Virus record (IMG/VR): IMGVR_UViG_2734482772_000014
DNA: 11,257 nt
Reading direction: 5' to 3' (one strand)
DNA from: a virus
Lineage: Duplodnaviria; Heunggongvirae; Uroviricota; Caudoviricetes
How positions within the stretch are numbered: the first letter of the stretch is position 1; each line of letters opens with the position of its first letter. The notes below the pieces were generated by a model, which saw only the letters and a list, made by a program, of their open reading frames with translations, was not told where the DNA came from and did no database searches. This document shows positions 2,023 to 11,257 of the stretch, piece by piece. The position numbers and the translations under genes were made by a program.

Positions 2023-2270
2023 ATCCCTACCAATCCCTACTAACTGGCTCAGGCCACGAATGGCAAGGCTTTCAGACTGGTAGGCATTCAATTTTGTTGC
2101 CCTACATAACCCTACTTATCCCTACTAAATCACTTCAACGGCATTTTGCTGCCTGTTTTATTTGGTAGGGATATGTAGGGATAAGTAGGGATAAAAATAT
2201 ATATCCCTACCTAGTTTAAAGCCTTGCTACGTCTGGCCTCGTCTCGTTTTTAGTAGGGCAGTAGGGATAA
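2023..2270. repeat. Iteron array, putative replication origin (crr/ori-like)
   Basis: About 11 copies of core CCCTAC/GTAGGG, often as (T)TATCCCTAC or GTAGGGATA(A/T). Forward copies at 2025, 2035, 2100, 2110, 2120, 2205; reverse copies at 2165, 2175, 2185 (exact 10-bp period), 2254, 2261. AT-rich tract ATAAAAATATATAT at 2191-2204. Sits immediately 3' of the primase-helicase gene. Confidence 0.6.
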
Positions 2271-2287: not shown

Positions 2288-4729
2288 TCAATCATCACTC
2301 TGCCCGCTCTCCACACCGTAAGCACGGGGCATGAACTCCTCAGCCTTCTCGTTATAGCCAACGTTGGTTTGCGCTCTGCCGTTAATGCTTCTCGTCAGGT
2401 AGCTGGCTCGGTACTCTTTTGCTGCTGATTTTATGGCGCGTGAAAACTTATTGACGGAAAGCGGTTTACCCAAACCGTGATACTCCATAAACGCCAGATA
2501 AAGATGATAAAGATACGTCCTCGGCTCTGGCTGGCCTGCCCATGTACCTCCGCCCATCATCATGCCTTTGGGTTCGTTCATGAAAAAAAGCGCCGCACAC
2601 ATATCGACAACCGGATCCGTGCCGCGTTTAACCTCTAGCGCCTCCTGCGAATCGCGCTGCTCTAGTAATAGTTCCTTTGCTTTGTTCTGGTCGGAAAAGG
2701 TGGTTAGCAGGTGGCGGATAATCACCGGGATTTCTCGCCTGATTTTTGCTGTTAAATCCGGGTCTTTGTCTGCGTCTGATACCGGGTTATTAAACGGGAA
2801 TATCACGCGGCGGCGGGCAATGCCCCCGTTTCGCTCCGTGAATGTCATCGGCTCGTTATTGGTTGCCATAACAACGGCATTTATCACGGTTGTGAACTGC
2901 TTTTCATATTTCCCATCAATCTCTACCGGATCGCCGCCCGTAATGGCTTTAATCCCCGCACCCTCTCCAACATAGCGGGTCTGGTCAGGCATAATAATCA
3001 GGCTTTTTCCTACGAACTGCGCCCGTCCCCGTGCGGTGTCCAGCGTCATCATGCTACCGCTGGCGGTGTTGTGTTCACCTGCCAGCGTGGTTGCTATGCT
3101 GCTGAATACGGATTTTCCACTGCCGCCCTCGCCAGTTATCTCAATGAATAGCTGCCAGTCGTGACGCTTCGCCAGCACCATAAACAAGGCTGCTTTGATA
3201 CGCTCGGCCTTATGATGGTCGCCAGCCGTTGCATGATTCAGCCAACTGGTAAAATTGGGGGCGCTGGTGGTAATATTTTCCCCCGGCGCTGGCGGGGTGT
3301 AGGTGATCCCATTGTGGTTCATCAGCCAGTTACCCGGCGAATGGGCGGAAAACGTCTGCGTAGCGAGGTCATAAACGCCGTTATCAAAACCAATCAAATC
3401 CCCGCTCCGCTCACCAATTACCGGTATTTGCAGCTTCATGGTTGCGACAACCGATTTAATCCCCTTTTCGGTGTAGTGGGCTTCGTGCTCGTCGAAAATT
3501 GCCACCATAACCCTTTCTAATTCACTGTCTGGTAGCTTCTCCCATACGCCAGATTCGTAGCAGTAAACAGTGCCACTATCAGGGTTAACCGCCAACATAT
3601 CCCATCGAGATGAAAGCAACCGCGCTTTCTGGCTGGCTGCCATTTGTGCAATATCTCCGACTTCGGCTTTACGGCGGGATTTACCGCCCGCAATGGCCTG
3701 TAGTTGTGGTTTCACGGCTTCCCCCTGAATCTGGTACATCGAATCGTTAAACGCAGCCGTAGCGACTTCCAGCCCGTTTTGCTGGCGGTAGTCGTCCCAG
3801 TCGGCTTTGTAGTCTGTCGGCGGCAGCGCCACCCAGCCAGCCACGGATAAGGCGGCTTTCTCTGCGGCATCTTTGCCCGTGTTCGCCTGTTCGTCCTGTT
3901 GGTGGTCGTTATCTGCGGCAATGATAATTTGCGACTGCGGGTGTTTCCGGCGCATCACTTCGGCAACGGGTAGCAGGTTGCCCGCATCAATGGCGCACAC
4001 TGTCAGCGCGTCAGGGCGCATCAGGTGGACTGATAAAGTGGTTGCCAGCCCCTCGGCAATAATCACCGCCTGCGGCTGTTCCGGTGCGTTAACGGCGTGA
4101 TATGCCCCGCGCTTTGCTGAACCTGTCAGGAGTCGCTTCTCTCCCTGCGGTGTAATGGTTTGCGCTGCTGCCACTGCGCCGGATTCGTCCACCAGCTCCA
4201 GCAATAACGAACCATCCGGCATAACCGGATAGTTAAACCCGGTCAGCCCTTTTGATTGCAGGTAATCAGATTCTCCCTGTGTGGCACTCTGGCGCATTCC
4301 GGCATACAGACGGGCAAACGTAGCCCTTCGCTGCTCTGCATCCTCTGCTGCCTGTTTCTGGCGCTCCTGCTCACGCTGCTGGCGGTCAGCTTCCAGTTGC
4401 TCTCTTCTATGGCTCGCTGCCACCGGGTCGGTTTCCGCTGCCCGGTAATCAATACCCAGCACATCAGCGGCAAGCCTTGCCGCTTCTGTGGTGTCGCAGT
4501 TGTTCACCTTCTTAATCAGGTCTAAACCGTCACCAGCGCCACACTGATTGCAGATAAAGCTACCGCGCCCGTTGTCGTCGAATCTGAAACGGTCTTTTCC
4601 ACCACATGCAGGGCATGGAGAATGGCGGCGCGATGAATCAGGCACGTCGATAGACAATCCAGCCAGCACATAAGGCCAGCGCCCGGCGGCGGCACTGGTC
4701 ACTTCGCGGATAATGTCGATATTACGCAT
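2288..4729 (-). CDS. P4 alpha-like bifunctional primase-helicase (813 aa from ATG 4729)
   Basis: Zinc ribbon CPACGG...CNQCG; Toprim signatures (IIAEG..., IIIAADND); Walker A GEGGSGKS in the C-terminal helicase region. SD AGGGGG upstream of ATG 4729..4727, placed just after the stop of the 113-aa gene (4724..4722). Confidence 0.88.
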   Translation of the reverse strand: MRNIDIIREVTSAAAGRWPYVLAGLSIDVPDSSRRHSPCPACGGKDRFRFDDNGRGSFICNQCGAGDGLDLIKKVNNCDTTEAARLAADVLGIDYRAAETDPVAASHRREQLEADRQQREQERQKQAAEDAEQRRATFARLYAGMRQSATQGESDYLQSKGLTGFNYPVMPDGSLLLELVDESGAVAAAQTITPQGEKRLLTGSAKRGAYHAVNAPEQPQAVIIAEGLATTLSVHLMRPDALTVCAIDAGNLLPVAEVMRRKHPQSQIIIAADNDHQQDEQANTGKDAAEKAALSVAGWVALPPTDYKADWDDYRQQNGLEVATAAFNDSMYQIQGEAVKPQLQAIAGGKSRRKAEVGDIAQMAASQKARLLSSRWDMLAVNPDSGTVYCYESGVWEKLPDSELERVMVAIFDEHEAHYTEKGIKSVVATMKLQIPVIGERSGDLIGFDNGVYDLATQTFSAHSPGNWLMNHNGITYTPPAPGENITTSAPNFTSWLNHATAGDHHKAERIKAALFMVLAKRHDWQLFIEITGEGGSGKSVFSSIATTLAGEHNTASGSMMTLDTARGRAQFVGKSLIIMPDQTRYVGEGAGIKAITGGDPVEIDGKYEKQFTTVINAVVMATNNEPMTFTERNGGIARRRVIFPFNNPVSDADKDPDLTAKIRREIPVIIRHLLTTFSDQNKAKELLLEQRDSQEALEVKRGTDPVVDMCAALFFMNEPKGMMMGGGTWAGQPEPRTYLYHLYLAFMEYHGLGKPLSVNKFSRAIKSAAKEYRASYLTRSINGRAQTNVGYNEKAEEFMPRAYGVESGQSDD

Positions 4730-5063
4730 GGTTGCCCCCTGCCACGGTCGCGCCCATGTCTTTAACCATGCTTTGCCATATCTCACGCCCTACGTCAGTC
4801 AATCCGTCATTAGTGACGCAACGATCAAGAATCTCGATCCCCACGGTTTCCCACTGCGGGTAGGACACTTTCATGGCTGCCAGTGTGTAGCTATCGATCA
4901 GGCTGCGAACGCCTTTTACTCCATTGACGATTTCCACACGGATTTGCTGGCCTGCCGCGTCAACCATGAAGTAATTGCCACCATTGATAGCCGTAATGTG
5001 GTTATACAGTGCCGACGCATACTTATTCGCCAGCGCATTAAGTCGGAAATTTTTAGTAATCAT
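4722..5063 (-). CDS. Hypothetical protein (113 aa)
   Basis: SD GAGGGGG upstream of ATG 5063..5061; ends 4 nt before the primase SD/ATG. No recognised motif. Confidence 0.5.
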   Translation of the reverse strand: MITKNFRLNALANKYASALYNHITAINGGNYFMVDAAGQQIRVEIVNGVKGVRSLIDSYTLAAMKVSYPQWETVGIEILDRCVTNDGLTDVGREIWQSMVKDMGATVAGGNHA

Positions 5064-6270: not shown

Positions 6271-6446
6271 GCCGCCACCTCACGAACGCGGGTAATCTGG
6301 ATGTGGGAAAGGCGTTCATTTCTGGCCTGATTTAGCGCCTCAGCTTTGGCGCTGATCGCGCTGCGGGCGTCAACGATATAAACGAACTCGACTAATTCGC
6401 CGCTCCGGGCGGTGGCGCATCCTGCAACACGGAAGTAATTAAGCAT
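6267..6446 (-). CDS. Hypothetical small protein (59 aa from ATG 6446)
   Basis: ATG 6446..6444 preceded by AGGGGG; overlaps the stop of the Icd-like gene by 8 nt (ATGCTTAA). The ORF track's longer version begins at a TTG. Confidence 0.4.
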   Translation of the reverse strand: MLNYFRVAGCATARSGELVEFVYIVDARSAISAKAEALNQARNERLSHIQITRVREVAA

Positions 6447-6631
6447 GTGCGCCCCCTGTGCGAATACGTCCGGCAAAAAAGCAAACGTGATCCCGCGCCA
6501 GAATGCGGCGGGCTTCCTGCTCGGTCTCTGCGGCGATATGGTGAATTTTGGCGGTAATTGTCGGGCAATCGCGGCGAACTGCGGCGATAATCCAGATAAA
6601 TTGCGGTTTTTGGGTAGGGGTAGTAGCCATT
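6439..6631 (-). CDS. Icd-like small protein (63 aa, MATTPTQKPQFIWIIAAVRR...)
   Basis: Strong SD AAGGAGG 7 nt upstream of ATG 6631..6629. Size and position (immediately after a C4/CI-type leader) match Icd of P1/P4-like elements. Family call from memory. Confidence 0.45.
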
Positions 6632-6654
6632 ATGGCAGCCTCCTTTGTGTTTAA

Positions 6655-6845
6655 GGAGTCACCGCATAAGGTTCCAATCTTAATAGTGGCGGTGACGTTA
6701 GCAGGGTTGGAACTACCGGACACAAAGGAAACCGGCCTACGCGAACGTAGCCCCACTAACGCCACCATAGATACAGTACGGGCAAGGCCGCTGATTTGAT
6801 GTGCGTGGTGATCGGACACAAAAAAAGACGCTTTCGGCGTCTGTG
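6655..6845 (-). ncRNA. Putative C4/CI-type antisense-RNA leader
   Basis: On the minus strand, two direct repeats UUUGUGUCCG(A/G)U (plus coords ~6811-6824 and ~6717-6730) are complementary to the Icd-like RBS ACACAAAGGAGG (plus 6641-6653). No protein-coding signal with an SD in this interval. Boundaries approximate. Confidence 0.3.
6819..6842 (-). terminator. Short hairpin + U7 (AGACGC-CGAAA-GCGUCU-UUUUUUU): terminator or leader structural element
   Basis: Minus-strand stem-loop followed by 7 U. The stem is only 6 bp, so it may instead be part of the antisense-RNA leader. Confidence 0.3.
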
Positions 6846-7039
6846 TCGCCCTTAGTGTGTTCGGGGTTCCAATCCCGGTTGCTGATTTTGCAGCAACGCT
6901 TGGACTATAACAGCTTTTCTCTGCTAGGTGGTCATACCAGATAAAACCGTAACCCTTTAAGAGTTTTTCCTGTGCACGGCTCACCATCTTTTTGTTGAGG
7001 GTAAGCGCCTCGCGTACTGGTAACGGAACTCCGGGCGCT

Positions 7040-7085
7040 GCGGTATCAATATCAGGTTTTATAAGGTTGTAAGGGTTAACATTTG
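7040..7085 (-). promoter_or_regulatory. Putative promoter/operator region with twin GTTAAC palindromes
   Basis: GTTAAC-ATTT-GTTAAC at 7065-7080, followed on the minus strand by TTACAA...TATAAA/TATTGAT candidate -35/-10 elements. Sits in the non-coding gap upstream of the antisense leader. Confidence 0.25.
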
Positions 7086-7129
7086 TTAACAGGCTAGCCA
7101 GATTAAAGGCTTCTTTCTGGGCGGCAGGT

Positions 7130-7312
7130 TCATTCAGTATCACGGCGCACCTCCACGAACTCATTAACGAATCTCTCCAAAGGCTGAACACATGGCGACT
7201 GATAGCCCTCGCGGTAAAAGGTCACTCGGTTATGCTCGACGCGCTCAACGGTCACTACAGCCCCGTGCGAATCCTTGTAACGGCTTCCCGGCATCGGATT
7301 GTGGTTACGCAT
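7130..7312 (-). CDS. DUF4222-like small protein (60 aa)
   Basis: SD GGAGG 6 nt upstream of ATG 7312..7310; start overlaps the antirepressor stop by 8 nt (ATGCGTAA). Pattern GSRYKDSHGAVVTV...VTFYREGY...C...LERFVNEF resembles DUF4222 from memory. Confidence 0.45.
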   Translation of the reverse strand: MRNHNPMPGSRYKDSHGAVVTVERVEHNRVTFYREGYQSPCVQPLERFVNEFVEVRRDTE

Positions 7313-8114
7313 GGTTTACCTCCAGACGCTTAGCGAGCCAGCGTTGCGACAGGCGGGTGAGTTCTCCTTTGCGCTGCTCATATTCCATGCCCATATCAAT
7401 TAACGTGATATTGGTGCTTTCGAGATAGGCGAGGTGTTCAAGCTGTGCTGCGTTCATGCTGTCCCGTGGTTCGCCAGTAATGCCATTTGCCTGCGCCCAC
7501 TGCTTCGCCGTCATGCCACCCAGCACGATACGGGCGATCATGTTGCTCTCGTTGCTGTAGTGGCGAGCCTGCGTCTGTTTACCCTGTTCTGCGCGGGCGC
7601 TTTCCAGCGCTACGCACATCGGTTTAAACAGGTTTGCGGCACCGATACGGGCTTTTAGCTGGCGACGATAGCGGGCGGCGATTTCAGGCACGCTACGCTG
7701 TAGTGCTTCCTCGCACTGGATGAAATAACGGCGGATAGCGCGACCCTGCTCGTTGCGTTCAACCATTGCCACTTCTTTAGCCATATCCAGCGATAGCAGA
7801 TAATCATGTTCTATTTGTTGGCGAGTTTTTGCGCTCGCCAGTTTTGGCGTGCTCAAATTTTCAACACGGATAAAATCGGTTCCGGCAATAAAACCGTACT
7901 GGTCAATTCGGCCTTTAATCCAGTTAGTGAAGTCGCGGCCCACCCCCAGCGCCTTATGCAAGGCTCTGGCGCTAACAATATTGGTTTCACGCCCGCCAAT
8001 GCGTCCGGCAATAACGGGAACAATAGCGGCAAAGTCGTCGCCGTTAATTACTCCCGTGTTAACGTTGGGTTGCGGGGCGGCCTCAGAAATTAATCTGCTT
8101 TTTTCGATAGTCAT
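7305..8114 (-). CDS. AntA-like phage antirepressor (269 aa)
   Basis: N-terminal VPVIAG...VSARALHKALGVGRDFTNWIKGRIDQYGFIAGTDF matches the AntA/AntB N-terminal domain pattern (VSAR.LH..L.V...F..WIK.RI..YGF....DF). SD GGAG upstream of ATG 8114..8112. Confidence 0.6.
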   Translation of the reverse strand: MTIEKSRLISEAAPQPNVNTGVINGDDFAAIVPVIAGRIGGRETNIVSARALHKALGVGRDFTNWIKGRIDQYGFIAGTDFIRVENLSTPKLASAKTRQQIEHDYLLSLDMAKEVAMVERNEQGRAIRRYFIQCEEALQRSVPEIAARYRRQLKARIGAANLFKPMCVALESARAEQGKQTQARHYSNESNMIARIVLGGMTAKQWAQANGITGEPRDSMNAAQLEHLAYLESTNITLIDMGMEYEQRKGELTRLSQRWLAKRLEVNHA

Positions 8115-8127
8115 ATTTTCGGCTCCG

Positions 8128-8559
8128 TTATGCGGCGGTAAATGCGTCTGGGTAGAGGTTGAGAATGTCGGCTATTTCAGACTTACTAAGCCCCTGATAA
8201 CCCCCTGCGGCGGCGTTGCTGTTAACCAACTGGATAACTCGCATCACATCACCACGGCCCACAAATCTGTAGCGTAGGTGTGCGCCAATGCCATCGGGGT
8301 TCTTTTCGTCTATACGCTCAAGCTGAATATCAAGCCTGCGCTCTAACTCGCTGGCGTAGTTCCTTCCAGACGAAAGGCGGCAATAACGCAGAATATCGTT
8401 TTCTGTCCATCCCTCTATACCAGTACGCAGCATATAGACGCGGGCGCGGTGTTTCTTTGGGGTACGCCTAGGTACTTGTACCGGGCTGGTGGTCGGCGTA
8501 ATATCAGACGTGCGAATATCTGAGTTAGCCGCCTGTAATGGGCGGTTTTTCTTTTTCAT
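8128..8559 (-). CDS. Hypothetical basic protein (143 aa from ATG 8559), coupled to alpA
   Basis: ATG 8559..8557 overlaps the alpA stop (ATGA). Lys/Arg-rich N-terminus suggests nucleic-acid binding. Family not recognised. Confidence 0.5.
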   Translation of the reverse strand: MKKKNRPLQAANSDIRTSDITPTTSPVQVPRRTPKKHRARVYMLRTGIEGWTENDILRYCRLSSGRNYASELERRLDIQLERIDEKNPDGIGAHLRYRFVGRGDVMRVIQLVNSNAAAGGYQGLSKSEIADILNLYPDAFTAA

Positions 8560-8762
8560 CAAGCCACCTTTCCCCGACGTTCTGCCAGCCAGTTGTTAAT
8601 CTCTACCGCATCAAAGGCGGTAATCTTCTCGCCCAGCTTTACCGGACGTGGTAGTGAACCGTTTCTTACTTTACGGTCGATGGTGGATACACTAACGCCC
8701 AGTAATTCAGCCAGGCGGAAGCGTCTGATATAGCCTTTTGTAGGAATAGTGTCGGTGTTCAT
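8559..8762 (-). CDS. alpA: AlpA/Vis-family phage transcriptional regulator / excisionase-like (67 aa)
   Basis: Winged-HTH signature RLAELLGVSVSTIDRKVRNGSLPRPVKLGEKITAFDAVEINNWL typical of the AlpA family; position next to a P4-type integrase. Confidence 0.8.
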   Translation of the reverse strand: MNTDTIPTKGYIRRFRLAELLGVSVSTIDRKVRNGSLPRPVKLGEKITAFDAVEINNWLAERRGKVA

Positions 8763-8876: not shown

Positions 8877-9842
8877 CTACCCCTTACCGTTGGCGGCAGC
8901 ACGTAAGTGTCTCAAAATCACATCTTCATTTGTGATTGCTAACGGTGGAATTTCGTCTTTATGAGCCACTATGCAATCCCGCCACTTCTCAGGGCTTATT
9001 TCTTTCTTTTTGCCACGGCATTCATCAGGATACTTTGACAAAAGATATATTGCAGATTTGAAAAGTTTTTCCCTGTTTTCAGCATGTCTCTCGGCATTAT
9101 GGTTGCTATTTTTTATTTCAGGTATTAGTTCCTGTTCTACCGCCATTTCGTATCGTTTTTTGCTCTTAGCTGCGTCAAAACTTCCATTAACCTTTGCGTC
9201 ATGAAGGTATTCTAAATCAGCCTTTGTTATATAAATGTTTTTATCTGACAGGCTACTCAGGTGAATTTGGGAACTTTGCATTTTGAATTTATATAGATCA
9301 CAATCAAATGTTGCTTCAAGTCGCACATATGGTTCTCCACATTCTTGTGAATGATAATGTCGTGTTGTTCTACCGCGTACACGCAACAATCCACATGCAA
9401 TTGATTTTCTTACAATAAAAGAGTTTTTGCCAATTTGTTCAAAAACATTTTTATTGTCGCTGTCTTCAACTGTCAGTGGTTTATGTGCATAAAATAGCTC
9501 ATAAGCACCGCTTTCAGATGCTGGGATATAAACTTCGTTGCTTGCGCTGGTAATAAGAAAAGGAAATGTAAACCTTACTTCTTCTGGGTACATAAGTAAT
9601 AAATCAGTTATAAAATTAGCATCTTTTTTGAAGTGGATGGTGGCATCAGATTCAATGAAATCAAGAAAGTCAGCATAGACATAAAAGTCTATATGTAGTC
9701 TATCTTTCCAATGCCATATATCATCAATTTCACAATTTAATAATTTTGATGCTCGCTCTATCGTGCAGTAGTCCAAAGGTGGAATACCTGATTCCTGCCA
9801 TAAATTTCTATGCACCACAGTTGTTTCATGAGAGTCGTTCAT
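8877..9842 (-). CDS. Orphan hypothetical protein (321 aa), AT-rich cargo between integrase and alpA
   Basis: SD AAGGTGA 7 nt upstream of ATG 9842..9840, stop TAG 8879..8877. Markedly AT-rich versus neighbours (by eye). No Walker A, HExxH or obvious hydrophobic TM stretch; C-terminal third is Lys/Glu-rich. Confidence 0.65.
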   Translation of the reverse strand: MNDSHETTVVHRNLWQESGIPPLDYCTIERASKLLNCEIDDIWHWKDRLHIDFYVYADFLDFIESDATIHFKKDANFITDLLLMYPEEVRFTFPFLITSASNEVYIPASESGAYELFYAHKPLTVEDSDNKNVFEQIGKNSFIVRKSIACGLLRVRGRTTRHYHSQECGEPYVRLEATFDCDLYKFKMQSSQIHLSSLSDKNIYITKADLEYLHDAKVNGSFDAAKSKKRYEMAVEQELIPEIKNSNHNAERHAENREKLFKSAIYLLSKYPDECRGKKKEISPEKWRDCIVAHKDEIPPLAITNEDVILRHLRAAANGKG

Positions 9843-9875
9843 TGCGTCACCTTTTACGCTGCGCCTTATTTTGTG

Positions 9876-9930
9876 ATTGAGCCAGGCGGTAAGGCTTCCC
9901 GCTTTTCGCCCCGTCGAGCTAGGCTCAATC
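9876..9930. repeat. Inverted repeat GATTGAGCC...GGCTCAATC in the int-cargo intergenic region
   Basis: 9-bp arms at 9876-9884 and 9922-9930 with a GC-rich ~37-bp spacer; no U-tract follows on the minus strand. Confidence 0.5.
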
Positions 9931-9937
9931 TATTCAG

Positions 9938-11197
9938 TTAGTTCGCCCTTCTGAGAGGCGTTACGTTGTAGTCTTTTCCGCTTTCCAGTGCCACCAGCAG
10001 ATCAGCCCACTGTGCCAGTGCTGCTTTACGCTCATCAAAATACTGATGGCGGTTATAAATCCCCTCTACGCCCTTAATGCGATGATTGAGGCATCGTTCC
10101 GCCACGACAGGATCAACACCCAACGCTGCTAAATGAGTACGTGCGGTGCGTCGGAAGTCGTGAATCGTGAAATTAGGCACATCCGGCATTTCGGCGCGAA
10201 CCTTAGCCAGTGCTACGGGCAAAGTGCTTTCCTGAATATGTGGGATCATTCTGTTTTGCATCTTCCTGGCTGGAAGCACCCATGCGCTATTACATGAAAA
10301 GGTGTGTAGCTCTCTCAACCATTCAACGGCTGGGGAAGGTAGAGGTATATCAATAGGGTCTCCGTTTTTGCTGCGTTCTTCCGGCAAATGCCATACCGCA
10401 CCATCTAAATCAAACTCTTCCCATCGTGCGGCGCATAACTCCATCTTACGAACGCATAGTGCCAGCAATAGCTTAAATGTCAGTTCGTTCTGGCGGCTGA
10501 ATCCTTTTGCGGTGCGCATAGCCTCGAATAGCCTGATAAGCTCATCGCGAGTTAGCCAACGGTCGCGGGAAACCTCTTTACCACCAGCATCAGATACTTC
10601 AAACGCTGAACAAGGGTTTATCTCCAGAGCGTGGCGTTTTATCCCGTAGTCAAAGATACGGCGTGTCCAGCGTAATACATCTGTTGCTATCGTTGGTGCT
10701 CCTCGGTCAACGATACCTTTCAACATGTCGTCAATGTGGCGTGGCTTAACGTCCTCTACCTTCATATGCCCAATGCAGGGGTTAATATCCTTATCAATTC
10801 TCCGGCGAAGGATATCGGGATGTTTCCATCTCGGAAGTATCTGGCGCTCGAAGTATTCGGAGGCCAGATCTGAAACACGCATGGCGTTTTTCTCAGCCTC
10901 CATTTTTGCCAGTGCTTCAGCTTTTCGTTCCTGTTTCTCTGCTGCTACGTCATAGCCAAGAGCAACTCTGGCTGACAGCTCTTTGGCTGTCTCTCTGGCC
11001 TTTGATAGTGATAGCTCGCTATACGAACCAATTAGCATGGCGCGGGACTTCCCTGCGAGTTTATAGCGGAATCTCCATGTGGGGGTTTTGTCGGCTTCAC
11101 GGTAACGTAGGTATAAACCGTTACCGTCTGCCCGCCCCTCGAATCGCTCTCCGCTCTTAATCCATGCGCGGATCTGCATGTCTGTTAGTTTTGGCAT
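9938..11197 (-). CDS. int: P4-type tyrosine integrase (419 aa from ATG 11197)
   Basis: N-terminus MPKLTD...GLYLRY...WRFRYKLAGK...LIGSY is characteristic of P4-family integrases; C-terminal HDFRRTARTHL (HxxR) and GIYNRHQYFDERK (catalytic Tyr region). The ORF stays open to the window edge (11257), but the MPKLTD start is the conserved one. Confidence 0.88.
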   Translation of the reverse strand: MPKLTDMQIRAWIKSGERFEGRADGNGLYLRYREADKTPTWRFRYKLAGKSRAMLIGSYSELSLSKARETAKELSARVALGYDVAAEKQERKAEALAKMEAEKNAMRVSDLASEYFERQILPRWKHPDILRRRIDKDINPCIGHMKVEDVKPRHIDDMLKGIVDRGAPTIATDVLRWTRRIFDYGIKRHALEINPCSAFEVSDAGGKEVSRDRWLTRDELIRLFEAMRTAKGFSRQNELTFKLLLALCVRKMELCAARWEEFDLDGAVWHLPEERSKNGDPIDIPLPSPAVEWLRELHTFSCNSAWVLPARKMQNRMIPHIQESTLPVALAKVRAEMPDVPNFTIHDFRRTARTHLAALGVDPVVAERCLNHRIKGVEGIYNRHQYFDERKAALAQWADLLVALESGKDYNVTPLRRAN

Positions 11198-11227
11198 TTT
11201 GCGAATATCCAAACTTTGAATAGGGGG

Positions 11228-11251
11228 TGTACCCAAAGCAATGTACCCAAA
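11228..11251. repeat. Direct repeats TGTACCCAAA x2 upstream of int
   Basis: Copies at 11228-11237 and 11242-11251 (14-bp period), within 50 bp of the int start. Candidate Int arm-type sites or int promoter operator. Confidence 0.4.
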
Positions 11252-11257
11252 CCTCAT

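Follow-up and report, generated by a model that had tools for sequence, protein, structure and literature searches.

An iteron dyad 3' of a P4-type primase-helicase gene is the probable replication origin of an EcCI-type phage-satellite island

The Gram-negative phage-inducible chromosomal islands (PICIs) described by Fillol-Salom et al. 2018 (PMC6092414) include one, EcCICFT073, whose replication origin has been examined by experiment: a plasmid carrying pri and ori was kept at the restrictive temperature, and delta-ori and delta-pri versions of it were not (PMC6092414). In staphylococcal pathogenicity islands (SaPIs), origins consist of 6–12 penta- or hexanucleotide iterons placed right after the rep ORF, in opposed halves that flank an A+T-rich centre (PMC9371898); such a centre between opposed iteron sets is common to both accounts (PMC6092414, PMC9371898), and in SaPIs it is where melting occurs, with one hexamer loading per side (PMC9371898). 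The SaPI Rep/PriRep proteins are self-loading SF3 helicases with a C-terminal winged helix (PMC9371898), and structures are available both for SaPI5 PriRep (PDB 7OLA) and for the origin-binding winged helix of the P4 alpha protein (PDB 1KA8) (PMC9371898, PMC2777425). The satellite P4 splits its origin functions between ori (one iteron arm, as defined below, plus type-2 repeats) and crr (two tandem 120-bp repeats), which lie ~4.5 kb apart, crr being directly 3' of the alpha gene. Here we analyse an 11,257-bp stretch of viral DNA (herein referred to as the window), positions 2025-2266 of which are very probably the replication origin of an EcCI/PICI-type phage-satellite island, matched to the island's own initiator; the evidence for this function is homology, namely of position, of architecture and of protein.

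Every gene in the window lies on the minus strand. From the integrase (9938-11257), the order runs through an AlpA/excisionase-like HTH protein of 67 aa (8559-8762), an AntA-family protein (7305-8114) and the primase-helicase Pri-Rep (2288-4786) to the iteron array, and beyond the array to a 100-aa ORF, an island-encoded SSB (1235-1669; Pfam SSB, E = 4.3e-15), a 223-aa HEXXH protein (496-1167) and PerC (1-282). The order primase, origin, small ORF, SSB and PerC is common to the window, EcCICFT073, EcCI042, ATCC 25922 and RM13514, and the SSB encoded downstream of the origin is likely an accessory replication protein. Of 5,426 complete E. coli genomes, 77 carry the array region, at 95-100% identity and always on the chromosome; in strain NT1F10 (L001) the island sits between yicC and dinD, the site at which EcCIRM13514 is listed as a PICI (PMC6092414). 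By its gene content and order, its single direction of transcription and the yicC-dinD site of its relatives, we assign the window to the EcCI-type PICIs. Neither a lambda-type cosN nor the P4 cos site was found in the window, capsid and terS genes are absent from the window (which may not span the whole island) and from L001, and sid, delta and psu are not annotated in the full island L001.

The 319-bp gap 3' of the primase-helicase gene holds a dense array of the hexamer CCCTAC/GTAGGG, the first iteron of which begins 22 nt past the stop codon at 2288. The hexamer occurs 13 times in the window, where dinucleotide-preserving shuffles give an expectation of 3.27 copies (sd 1.92), and none of 200 such shuffles reached 13. 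Eleven of the 13 copies fall within 2025-2266, and the Poisson probability of at least 11 copies in 248 bp, given the window-wide expectation, is ~6e-21; together, the shuffles and the Poisson test rule out chance or low complexity as the source of the array. Exact cores lie at 2025, 2035, 2100, 2110, 2120 and 2205 on the plus strand and at 2165, 2175, 2185, 2253 and 2261 on the minus strand, and the full iteron unit is longer than the hexamer, reading approximately (T)ATCCCTAC(T). An initial annotation, made from the letters of the window, had described about 11 copies of the hexamer, two opposed triplets with 10-bp spacing, an A/T tract at 2191-2204 and a position directly downstream of a primase-helicase gene, and each of these descriptions is borne out, the gene being a minus-strand ORF and the triplets lying exactly where it had placed them.

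Beyond these elements, the array has a symmetry that extends over its whole length. Starting next to the primase gene, the proximal arm comprises an outer pair (2253-2266, minus strand) with cores at 2261-2266 and 2253-2258, 8 bp apart and reading CCCTAC in the direction of the gene; a lone inverted iteron (2205-2210, plus strand), 48 bp from the outer pair and 20 bp from the triplet; a 14-bp linker (2191-2204) of sequence ATAAAAATATATAT, 100% A+T; and a triplet (2165-2190, minus strand) with cores at 2185, 2175 and 2165. A central spacer of 39 bp (2126-2164) with 64% A+T, against 49% for the window, then separates this arm from a distal one, in which a triplet (2100-2125, plus strand; cores 2100, 2110 and 2120) mirrors the proximal triplet, a linker (2086-2099; ATTCAATTTTGTTG, 79% A+T) mirrors that at 2191-2204, a degenerate lone inverted iteron (2080-2085, minus strand) reads GTAGGC with one mismatch, and an outer pair (2025-2040, plus strand) has its cores at 2025 and 2035. 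The GTAGGC site is the sole one-mismatch copy of the iteron within the intergenic region, and it occupies the exact mirror position of the copy at 2205. The 12 iterons (11 exact and one degenerate) form a single dyad centred on 2145, in which the coordinates of mirrored partners sum to 4290 in every pair, the two triplets are opposed in exact 10-bp phase and the order, read along the direction of the gene, is 2-1-3/3-1-2. The spacers are partly palindromic too (80-nt arms, 73% complementary), and the 251-nt array folded as single-stranded DNA gives one long hairpin (z = -8.9). A separate palindrome at 1993-2017 (CCCCCCCCATAGAATTTTTTTGGGGG), in which two G/C runs enclose an A/T stretch, is situated between the array and the beginning of the 100-aa ORF; three related loci (L001, L005 and L006) retain it, and L008 and EcCICFT073 have looser versions of it.

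Several other identities were considered for the region and rejected. A classical RepA-type iteron-plasmid oriV has direct repeats of 17-22 bp together with DnaA boxes and an A+T-rich unwinding element set apart from them, and the units here measure 6-10 bp and occur in both orientations. The array region contains no DnaA box, even with one mismatch allowed, no IHF site and no GATC cluster, absences that rule out an origin fired by a host initiator. A known RNA is excluded by the lack of any Rfam match in 1969-2287; a hidden small gene by the presence of only short, unsupported ORFs of 22-44 aa, mostly with TTG starts; integrase arm sites by the ~8 kb that separate the array from int; and a packaging site by the lack of any cos-like sequence.

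The closest match to the dyad is the tested origin of EcCICFT073. That origin, too, comes right after pri-rep, with a small ORF, ssb and perC beyond it, and it has a 12-iteron 2-1-3/3-1-2 dyad with near-identical spacing and an A+T-rich centre; in our own reading of the gap after pri-rep in EcCICFT073, the iterons follow the order 2-1-3/2(+1 degenerate)-1-2. The two differ in their core, which is TCTACC in EcCICFT073 and CCCTAC here, and in the protein: where the window encodes P4-type zinc ribbon and Toprim domains, the EcCICFT073 Pri-Rep has an unrelated N-terminal stretch of ~143 aa. EcCICFT073 also carries capsid genes and cos sites, which are not seen in the window, and its origin function has been tested experimentally, whereas that of the window is predicted from sequence comparison. 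EcCIRM13514 shares both the attachment site of the window's relatives (yicC-dinD) and the origin architecture, its gap reading 2-1-3/3-1-2, but it has P4-type TGTTCACC iterons and a Pri-Rep of 607 aa with a different N-terminus and a DNA-binding domain only 29% identical. Our comparison of published Pri-Rep alleles left out the fourth one (E. coli ED1a). A text search of the supplements of PMC6092414 found no CCCTAC/GTAGGG, the figure that shows iteron sequences lying outside that search. The SaPIs are more distant: they share iteron sets around an A+T-rich centre and a helicase match to 7OLA, but the sequence match is confined to the helicase core, the hosts are Gram-positive, and the lone inverted site and outer pair of each arm fall outside the SaPI description of PMC9371898. 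What is particular to the window is that an EcCI-type island here combines a CCCTAC core and a complete N-terminal primase region of the P4 type.

The comparison with P4 bears on a different reading of the array. The initial annotation had stated that P4 crr lies just beyond alpha and that the P4 repeat has another core, and had proposed that the array is an ori or crr analogue whose binding specificity may differ from that of P4; the P4 record agrees on both statements, the P4 core being the 8-nt TGTTCACC as against CCCTAC (approximately ATCCCTAC) here, and the analogy gains support from the homology of Pri-Rep to alpha, the match to 1KA8, the position of the array and the tracking of the core with the C-terminal domain of the protein. 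The homology of alpha to Pri-Rep spans the whole protein and takes in the 1KA8 winged helix, and crr and the array occupy equivalent places, each directly 3' of the initiator gene. The array could accordingly be imagined as a crr-like cis element bound by the primase-helicase, with synthesis starting at a separate origin as in P4: it occupies exactly the crr position, and each 120-bp unit of crr (L004 4291-4590) resembles the centre of the dyad, with one reverse and three forward sites followed by two reverse ones. Against such a division of labour, there is no second CCCTAC cluster in the window (which has two isolated copies elsewhere) or in the 24-kb whole-island locus of NT1F10; the array is a dyad and not two tandem 120-bp direct repeats; it contains arms spaced as in P4 ori (L004 9310-9413), whose six type-1 repeats, spaced 10, 11, 22, 43 and 10, correspond to one arm of the window; and in EcCICFT073 the equivalent single region together with pri-rep sufficed (PMC6092414). 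We regard the crr-like reading as very unlikely. The window has both arms in one dyad, unlike the split ori and crr of P4, and because no second CCCTAC cluster exists we judge the array to be closer to the single PICI origin of EcCICFT073 than to P4 ori plus crr. P4 itself appears to have the same origin plan split into separate pieces. The arm-and-dyad plan of the array is shared with PICI origins and, in split form, with P4.

We examined how widely this plan occurs by fetching 80 further loci, from Enterobacterales, Aeromonas and others, out of at least 286 relatives of the helicase and DNA-binding half of Pri-Rep, and by inspecting the first 450 bp downstream of every primase stop codon. 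In most of the 80 loci one hexamer is strongly over-represented there, and the cores are of at least six different kinds (CCCTAC, TCTACC, TTCACC/TGTTCACC, TGTTCAT, GTCACT, CTCCAC and CTTCCA). The order and spacing of the sites are nearly constant across these cores and can be written, with arrowheads for the sites and numbers for the distances between them, as > 8-10 > ~45 < ~21 > ~10 > ~10 > (centre) < ~10 < ~10 < ~22 > ~43 < ~9 <. In the relatives, the outer pair has a spacing of 8-10 bp and lies ~+16 to +25 nt after the stop, the 48 and 20 bp that flank the lone proximal site of the window agree with conserved distances of 41-50 and 19-24 bp, and an exact iteron copy stands where the window has its degenerate site at 2080-2085. 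When 34 loci were searched for six-site arms with the spacings of the relatives and one mismatch allowed per site, the cognate core yielded a proximal arm in 22 of 34 loci and a distal arm in 15 of 34, compared with 6 and 1, respectively, of 272 tests with non-cognate cores. Similar DNA was not found in phage records, and the matches in plasmids represent the same kind of island, or its remnants, within large plasmids.

The protein presumed to act on the array is a P4 alpha-type primase-helicase encoded by an intact minus-strand ORF (2288-4786), which in its mechanical form has 832 aa from a GTG at 4786, RefSeq relatives starting at the ATG at 4729 to give 813 aa under the name 'phage/plasmid primase, P4 family'. 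Its Pfam domains are Zn_Ribbon_Prim, Toprim_3, D5_N, DUF5906 (the SF3 helicase) and, at the C-terminus, Pox_D5. Pri-Rep is 39% identical to P4 alpha across 812 aa with an identical domain order, the half that holds the helicase and the C-terminus shares 54% identity with Pri-Rep of EcCICFT073 and 47% with that of RM13514, and residues 409-669 match 7OLA. The C-terminal winged-helix origin-binding domain (aa 723-815; codons at 2342-2620, minus strand) matches 1KA8 (phmmer, E = 3.9e-8) and is predicted to be the reader of the iterons. The 100-aa ORF downstream of the array was rejected as an alternative reader, being missing in L005, which has identical iterons, and having a homologue in L009, where the core is TTCACC.

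If the winged helix reads the iterons, the core might be expected to follow this domain, and a comparison of cores with the primase C-terminal domain, which the initial annotation had put forward, gave this outcome: the core tracks the C-terminal domain and not the helicase. Among 34 dereplicated loci, identity of the binding domain predicted a shared core with an AUC of 0.77, as against 0.66 for identity of the helicase, and permutation of labels gave p <= 5e-4 for the link, a test that ignores shared ancestry. Individual loci illustrate the pattern. The Tatumella locus (L009) has a helicase 81% identical to that of the window, a binding domain only 35% identical and the core TTCACC; L048 has a helicase 48% identical, a binding domain 64% identical and the core TCTACC, which is related to CCCTAC; and the Rosenbergiella locus (L008), 80% identical in both helicase and binding domain, has CTCTAC. 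Co-variation alone cannot separate cause from linkage, because the downstream DNA is co-inherited with the C-terminal domain. We regard the concerted change of sites in L008 as the stronger argument: when its array is aligned to that of the window, CTCTAC stands at the homologous positions while the spacers differ at about half of theirs. L007 shares the core of the window, and in the alignment of the two arrays differences fall in 13 of 72 iteron columns, compared with 124 of 261 columns outside the iterons (Fisher, 5.8e-6). Sites that have been kept (L007) or changed together (L008) among spacers ~50% diverged indicate, at the level of these alignments, that selection acts on the sites.

The same alignments weigh on the idea that the array is a relic, the origin of a decayed and no longer replicating island that has been kept merely by recent descent. 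Conservation within E. coli says little on this point, because all 77 carriers are 95-100% identical at the array, and the window shows neither packaging genes nor a cos site. The pri-rep ORF is nevertheless intact, all 12 of the 12 sites are present, 11 of them exact, and across genera (L007 and L008) sites have been conserved or changed in concert; a relic is scarcely credible, and it is the least probable of the readings considered here.

Nor does the region have the appearance of one devoted mainly to transcriptional control, whether as operators for the operon of the small ORF, ssb and perC, or as a terminator or autoregulatory element of pri-rep. The array does fill the whole gap from pri-rep to the next gene, and iteron-binding initiators, such as those of iteron plasmids, often repress nearby promoters too. 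However, there is no sigma-70-like promoter on either strand, a single weak terminator-like site lies on the non-coding strand, Rfam offers no family for 1969-2287, the downstream small ORF does not track the repeats (L005 and L009), and tested origins have just this layout, a conserved dyad of 12 sites around an A+T-rich centre. We consider a mainly regulatory role highly improbable, and hold to the array being a replication origin.

Where the DNA of such an origin would open is a question on which the composition of the array gives two answers. In 21 relatives, mean A+T content is 76% in the linkers and 67% in the central spacers, compared with 48% in the adjacent gene. In the window, the 14-bp linker at 2191-2204 forms the core of the replication module's least stable 40-mer, and 2181-2220 is the least stable 40-mer of the whole window outside an A+T-rich cargo gene (nearest-neighbour energy, z = 3.2). 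The initial annotation had taken the tract at 2191-2204 for a DNA-unwinding element; the part of this proposal that stands is that the linker region is the least stable DNA of the module, but the tract is one of two symmetric linkers within the arms, and by analogy with SaPIs and PICIs melting is expected in the centre. We propose the central spacer (2126-2164) as the candidate region for melting and loading. The choice between centre and linkers is an uncertain one, because the central spacer is only moderately A+T-rich (64%), below the 14-bp linker.

We hypothesize the following course of replication by extension from experiments on P4, SaPIs and EcCICFT073. Once the island had been induced and excised, the winged helices of Pri-Rep would bind the iterons, and two SF3-type helicase hexamers, one per arm, would load themselves without DnaA and melt A+T-rich DNA either between the triplets or next to them. 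Synthesis would then be primed by the N-terminal zinc-ribbon and Toprim primase, the island SSB would coat the unwound strands, and the circular element would replicate bidirectionally.

The constancy of the arm deserves comment. Each arm consists of 2 + 1 + 3 sites with spacings of ~9, 45, 21, 10 and 10 bp, and it is found with at least six DNA specificities, in bacteria that range from E. coli to Aeromonas. P4 ori has one such arm, and PICI origins have two, arranged as a dyad. The number of sites in an arm, six, is also the number of winged helices in one hexamer, and the arm could therefore template one hexamer. As a speculation to which we would give rather low odds, what is conserved may be, beyond the mere placing of iterons to either side of an A+T-rich region, a fixed arm of six sites that serves as a template, wrapping ~110 bp round one hexamer, so that two arms would give a double hexamer of defined geometry. 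If this were true, the family would be a model, readable from sequence, of how self-loading helicases are positioned, and the need of P4 for crr would be explained as that for a second arm supplied in trans. A fixed arm across many specificities may be the one aspect of this system that deserves further work. The biology is otherwise what would be expected of PICI and P4-type satellites, whose origins have this layout as standard. Its value lies in assigning a role to the longest non-coding stretch of an island that is widespread in E. coli and encodes a PerC-family regulator, and in predicting the protein domain by which each 6-8 bp word is read. Natural pairs such as CCCTAC/CTCTAC, whose binding domains are 80% identical, offer a ready system for mapping winged-helix specificity, and such core pairs could be used for orthogonal, helper-inducible replicons.

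Other islands and plasmids show the module, or substitutes for it, in further settings. On the same island backbone, a locus with an unrelated TOPRIM+DUF927 replicase (L085 2841-3424) has, where the window has its array, three copies of GTTGGTTCA, an A+T-rich stretch and three inverted copies, and EcCI042 (L086 5725-5924), with a RepA-family helicase, has AAAGTGAGG-type repeats; to judge from these sequences, replicase and origin are swapped together, as a single cassette, on island backbones that resemble one another. A Klebsiella plasmid (K. pneumoniae pVA126-339, L088) carries the whole module. The Salmonella plasmid pLG26p2 (L089 5001-5747) carries a remnant ORF that amounts to the primase C-terminal DNA-binding domain alone, beside approximately half an array that is ~79% identical to the window over the first 137 bp of the gap; plasmids of this kind are large Salmonella conjugative plasmids, and the stand-alone binding domain could compete for iterons. 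The contig labelled Chryseobacterium sp. 18061 (L007), with CCCTAC iterons and 84% protein identity to the Pri-Rep of the window, is recorded under a Bacteroidota genus, and all other relatives belong to Gammaproteobacteria; contamination or mislabelling of this assembly seems more likely than transfer.

The remainder of the window also has features of its own. Four P4-type immunity and regulatory RNAs, all on the minus strand, score above their Rfam gathering thresholds: C4 antisense RNA (6685-6772), isrK (6821-6897), the c4 a1b1 target (6858-6910) and int-alpA RNA (9863-9929). Those at 6685-6910 lie under a mechanical 250-aa ORF (6439-7191) that is annotated as ash or Icd-like in RefSeq relatives. 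Adjoining the integrase, a 321-aa ORF (8877-9842, minus strand) with no Pfam or PHROG match is strongly A+T-rich and accounts for most of the window's least stable DNA; it looks like foreign cargo, and is possibly a defence gene in a satellite hotspot. The 223-aa protein (496-1167) has weak M41 and M50B matches (E = 3e-4 and 5e-3, below Pfam cut-offs) over a HEAGH motif of the HEXXH type. It is encoded between SSB and PerC in the window and in L085 and is missing from the similar NT1F10 island (L001), and the slot between SSB and PerC looks like a variable cargo slot.
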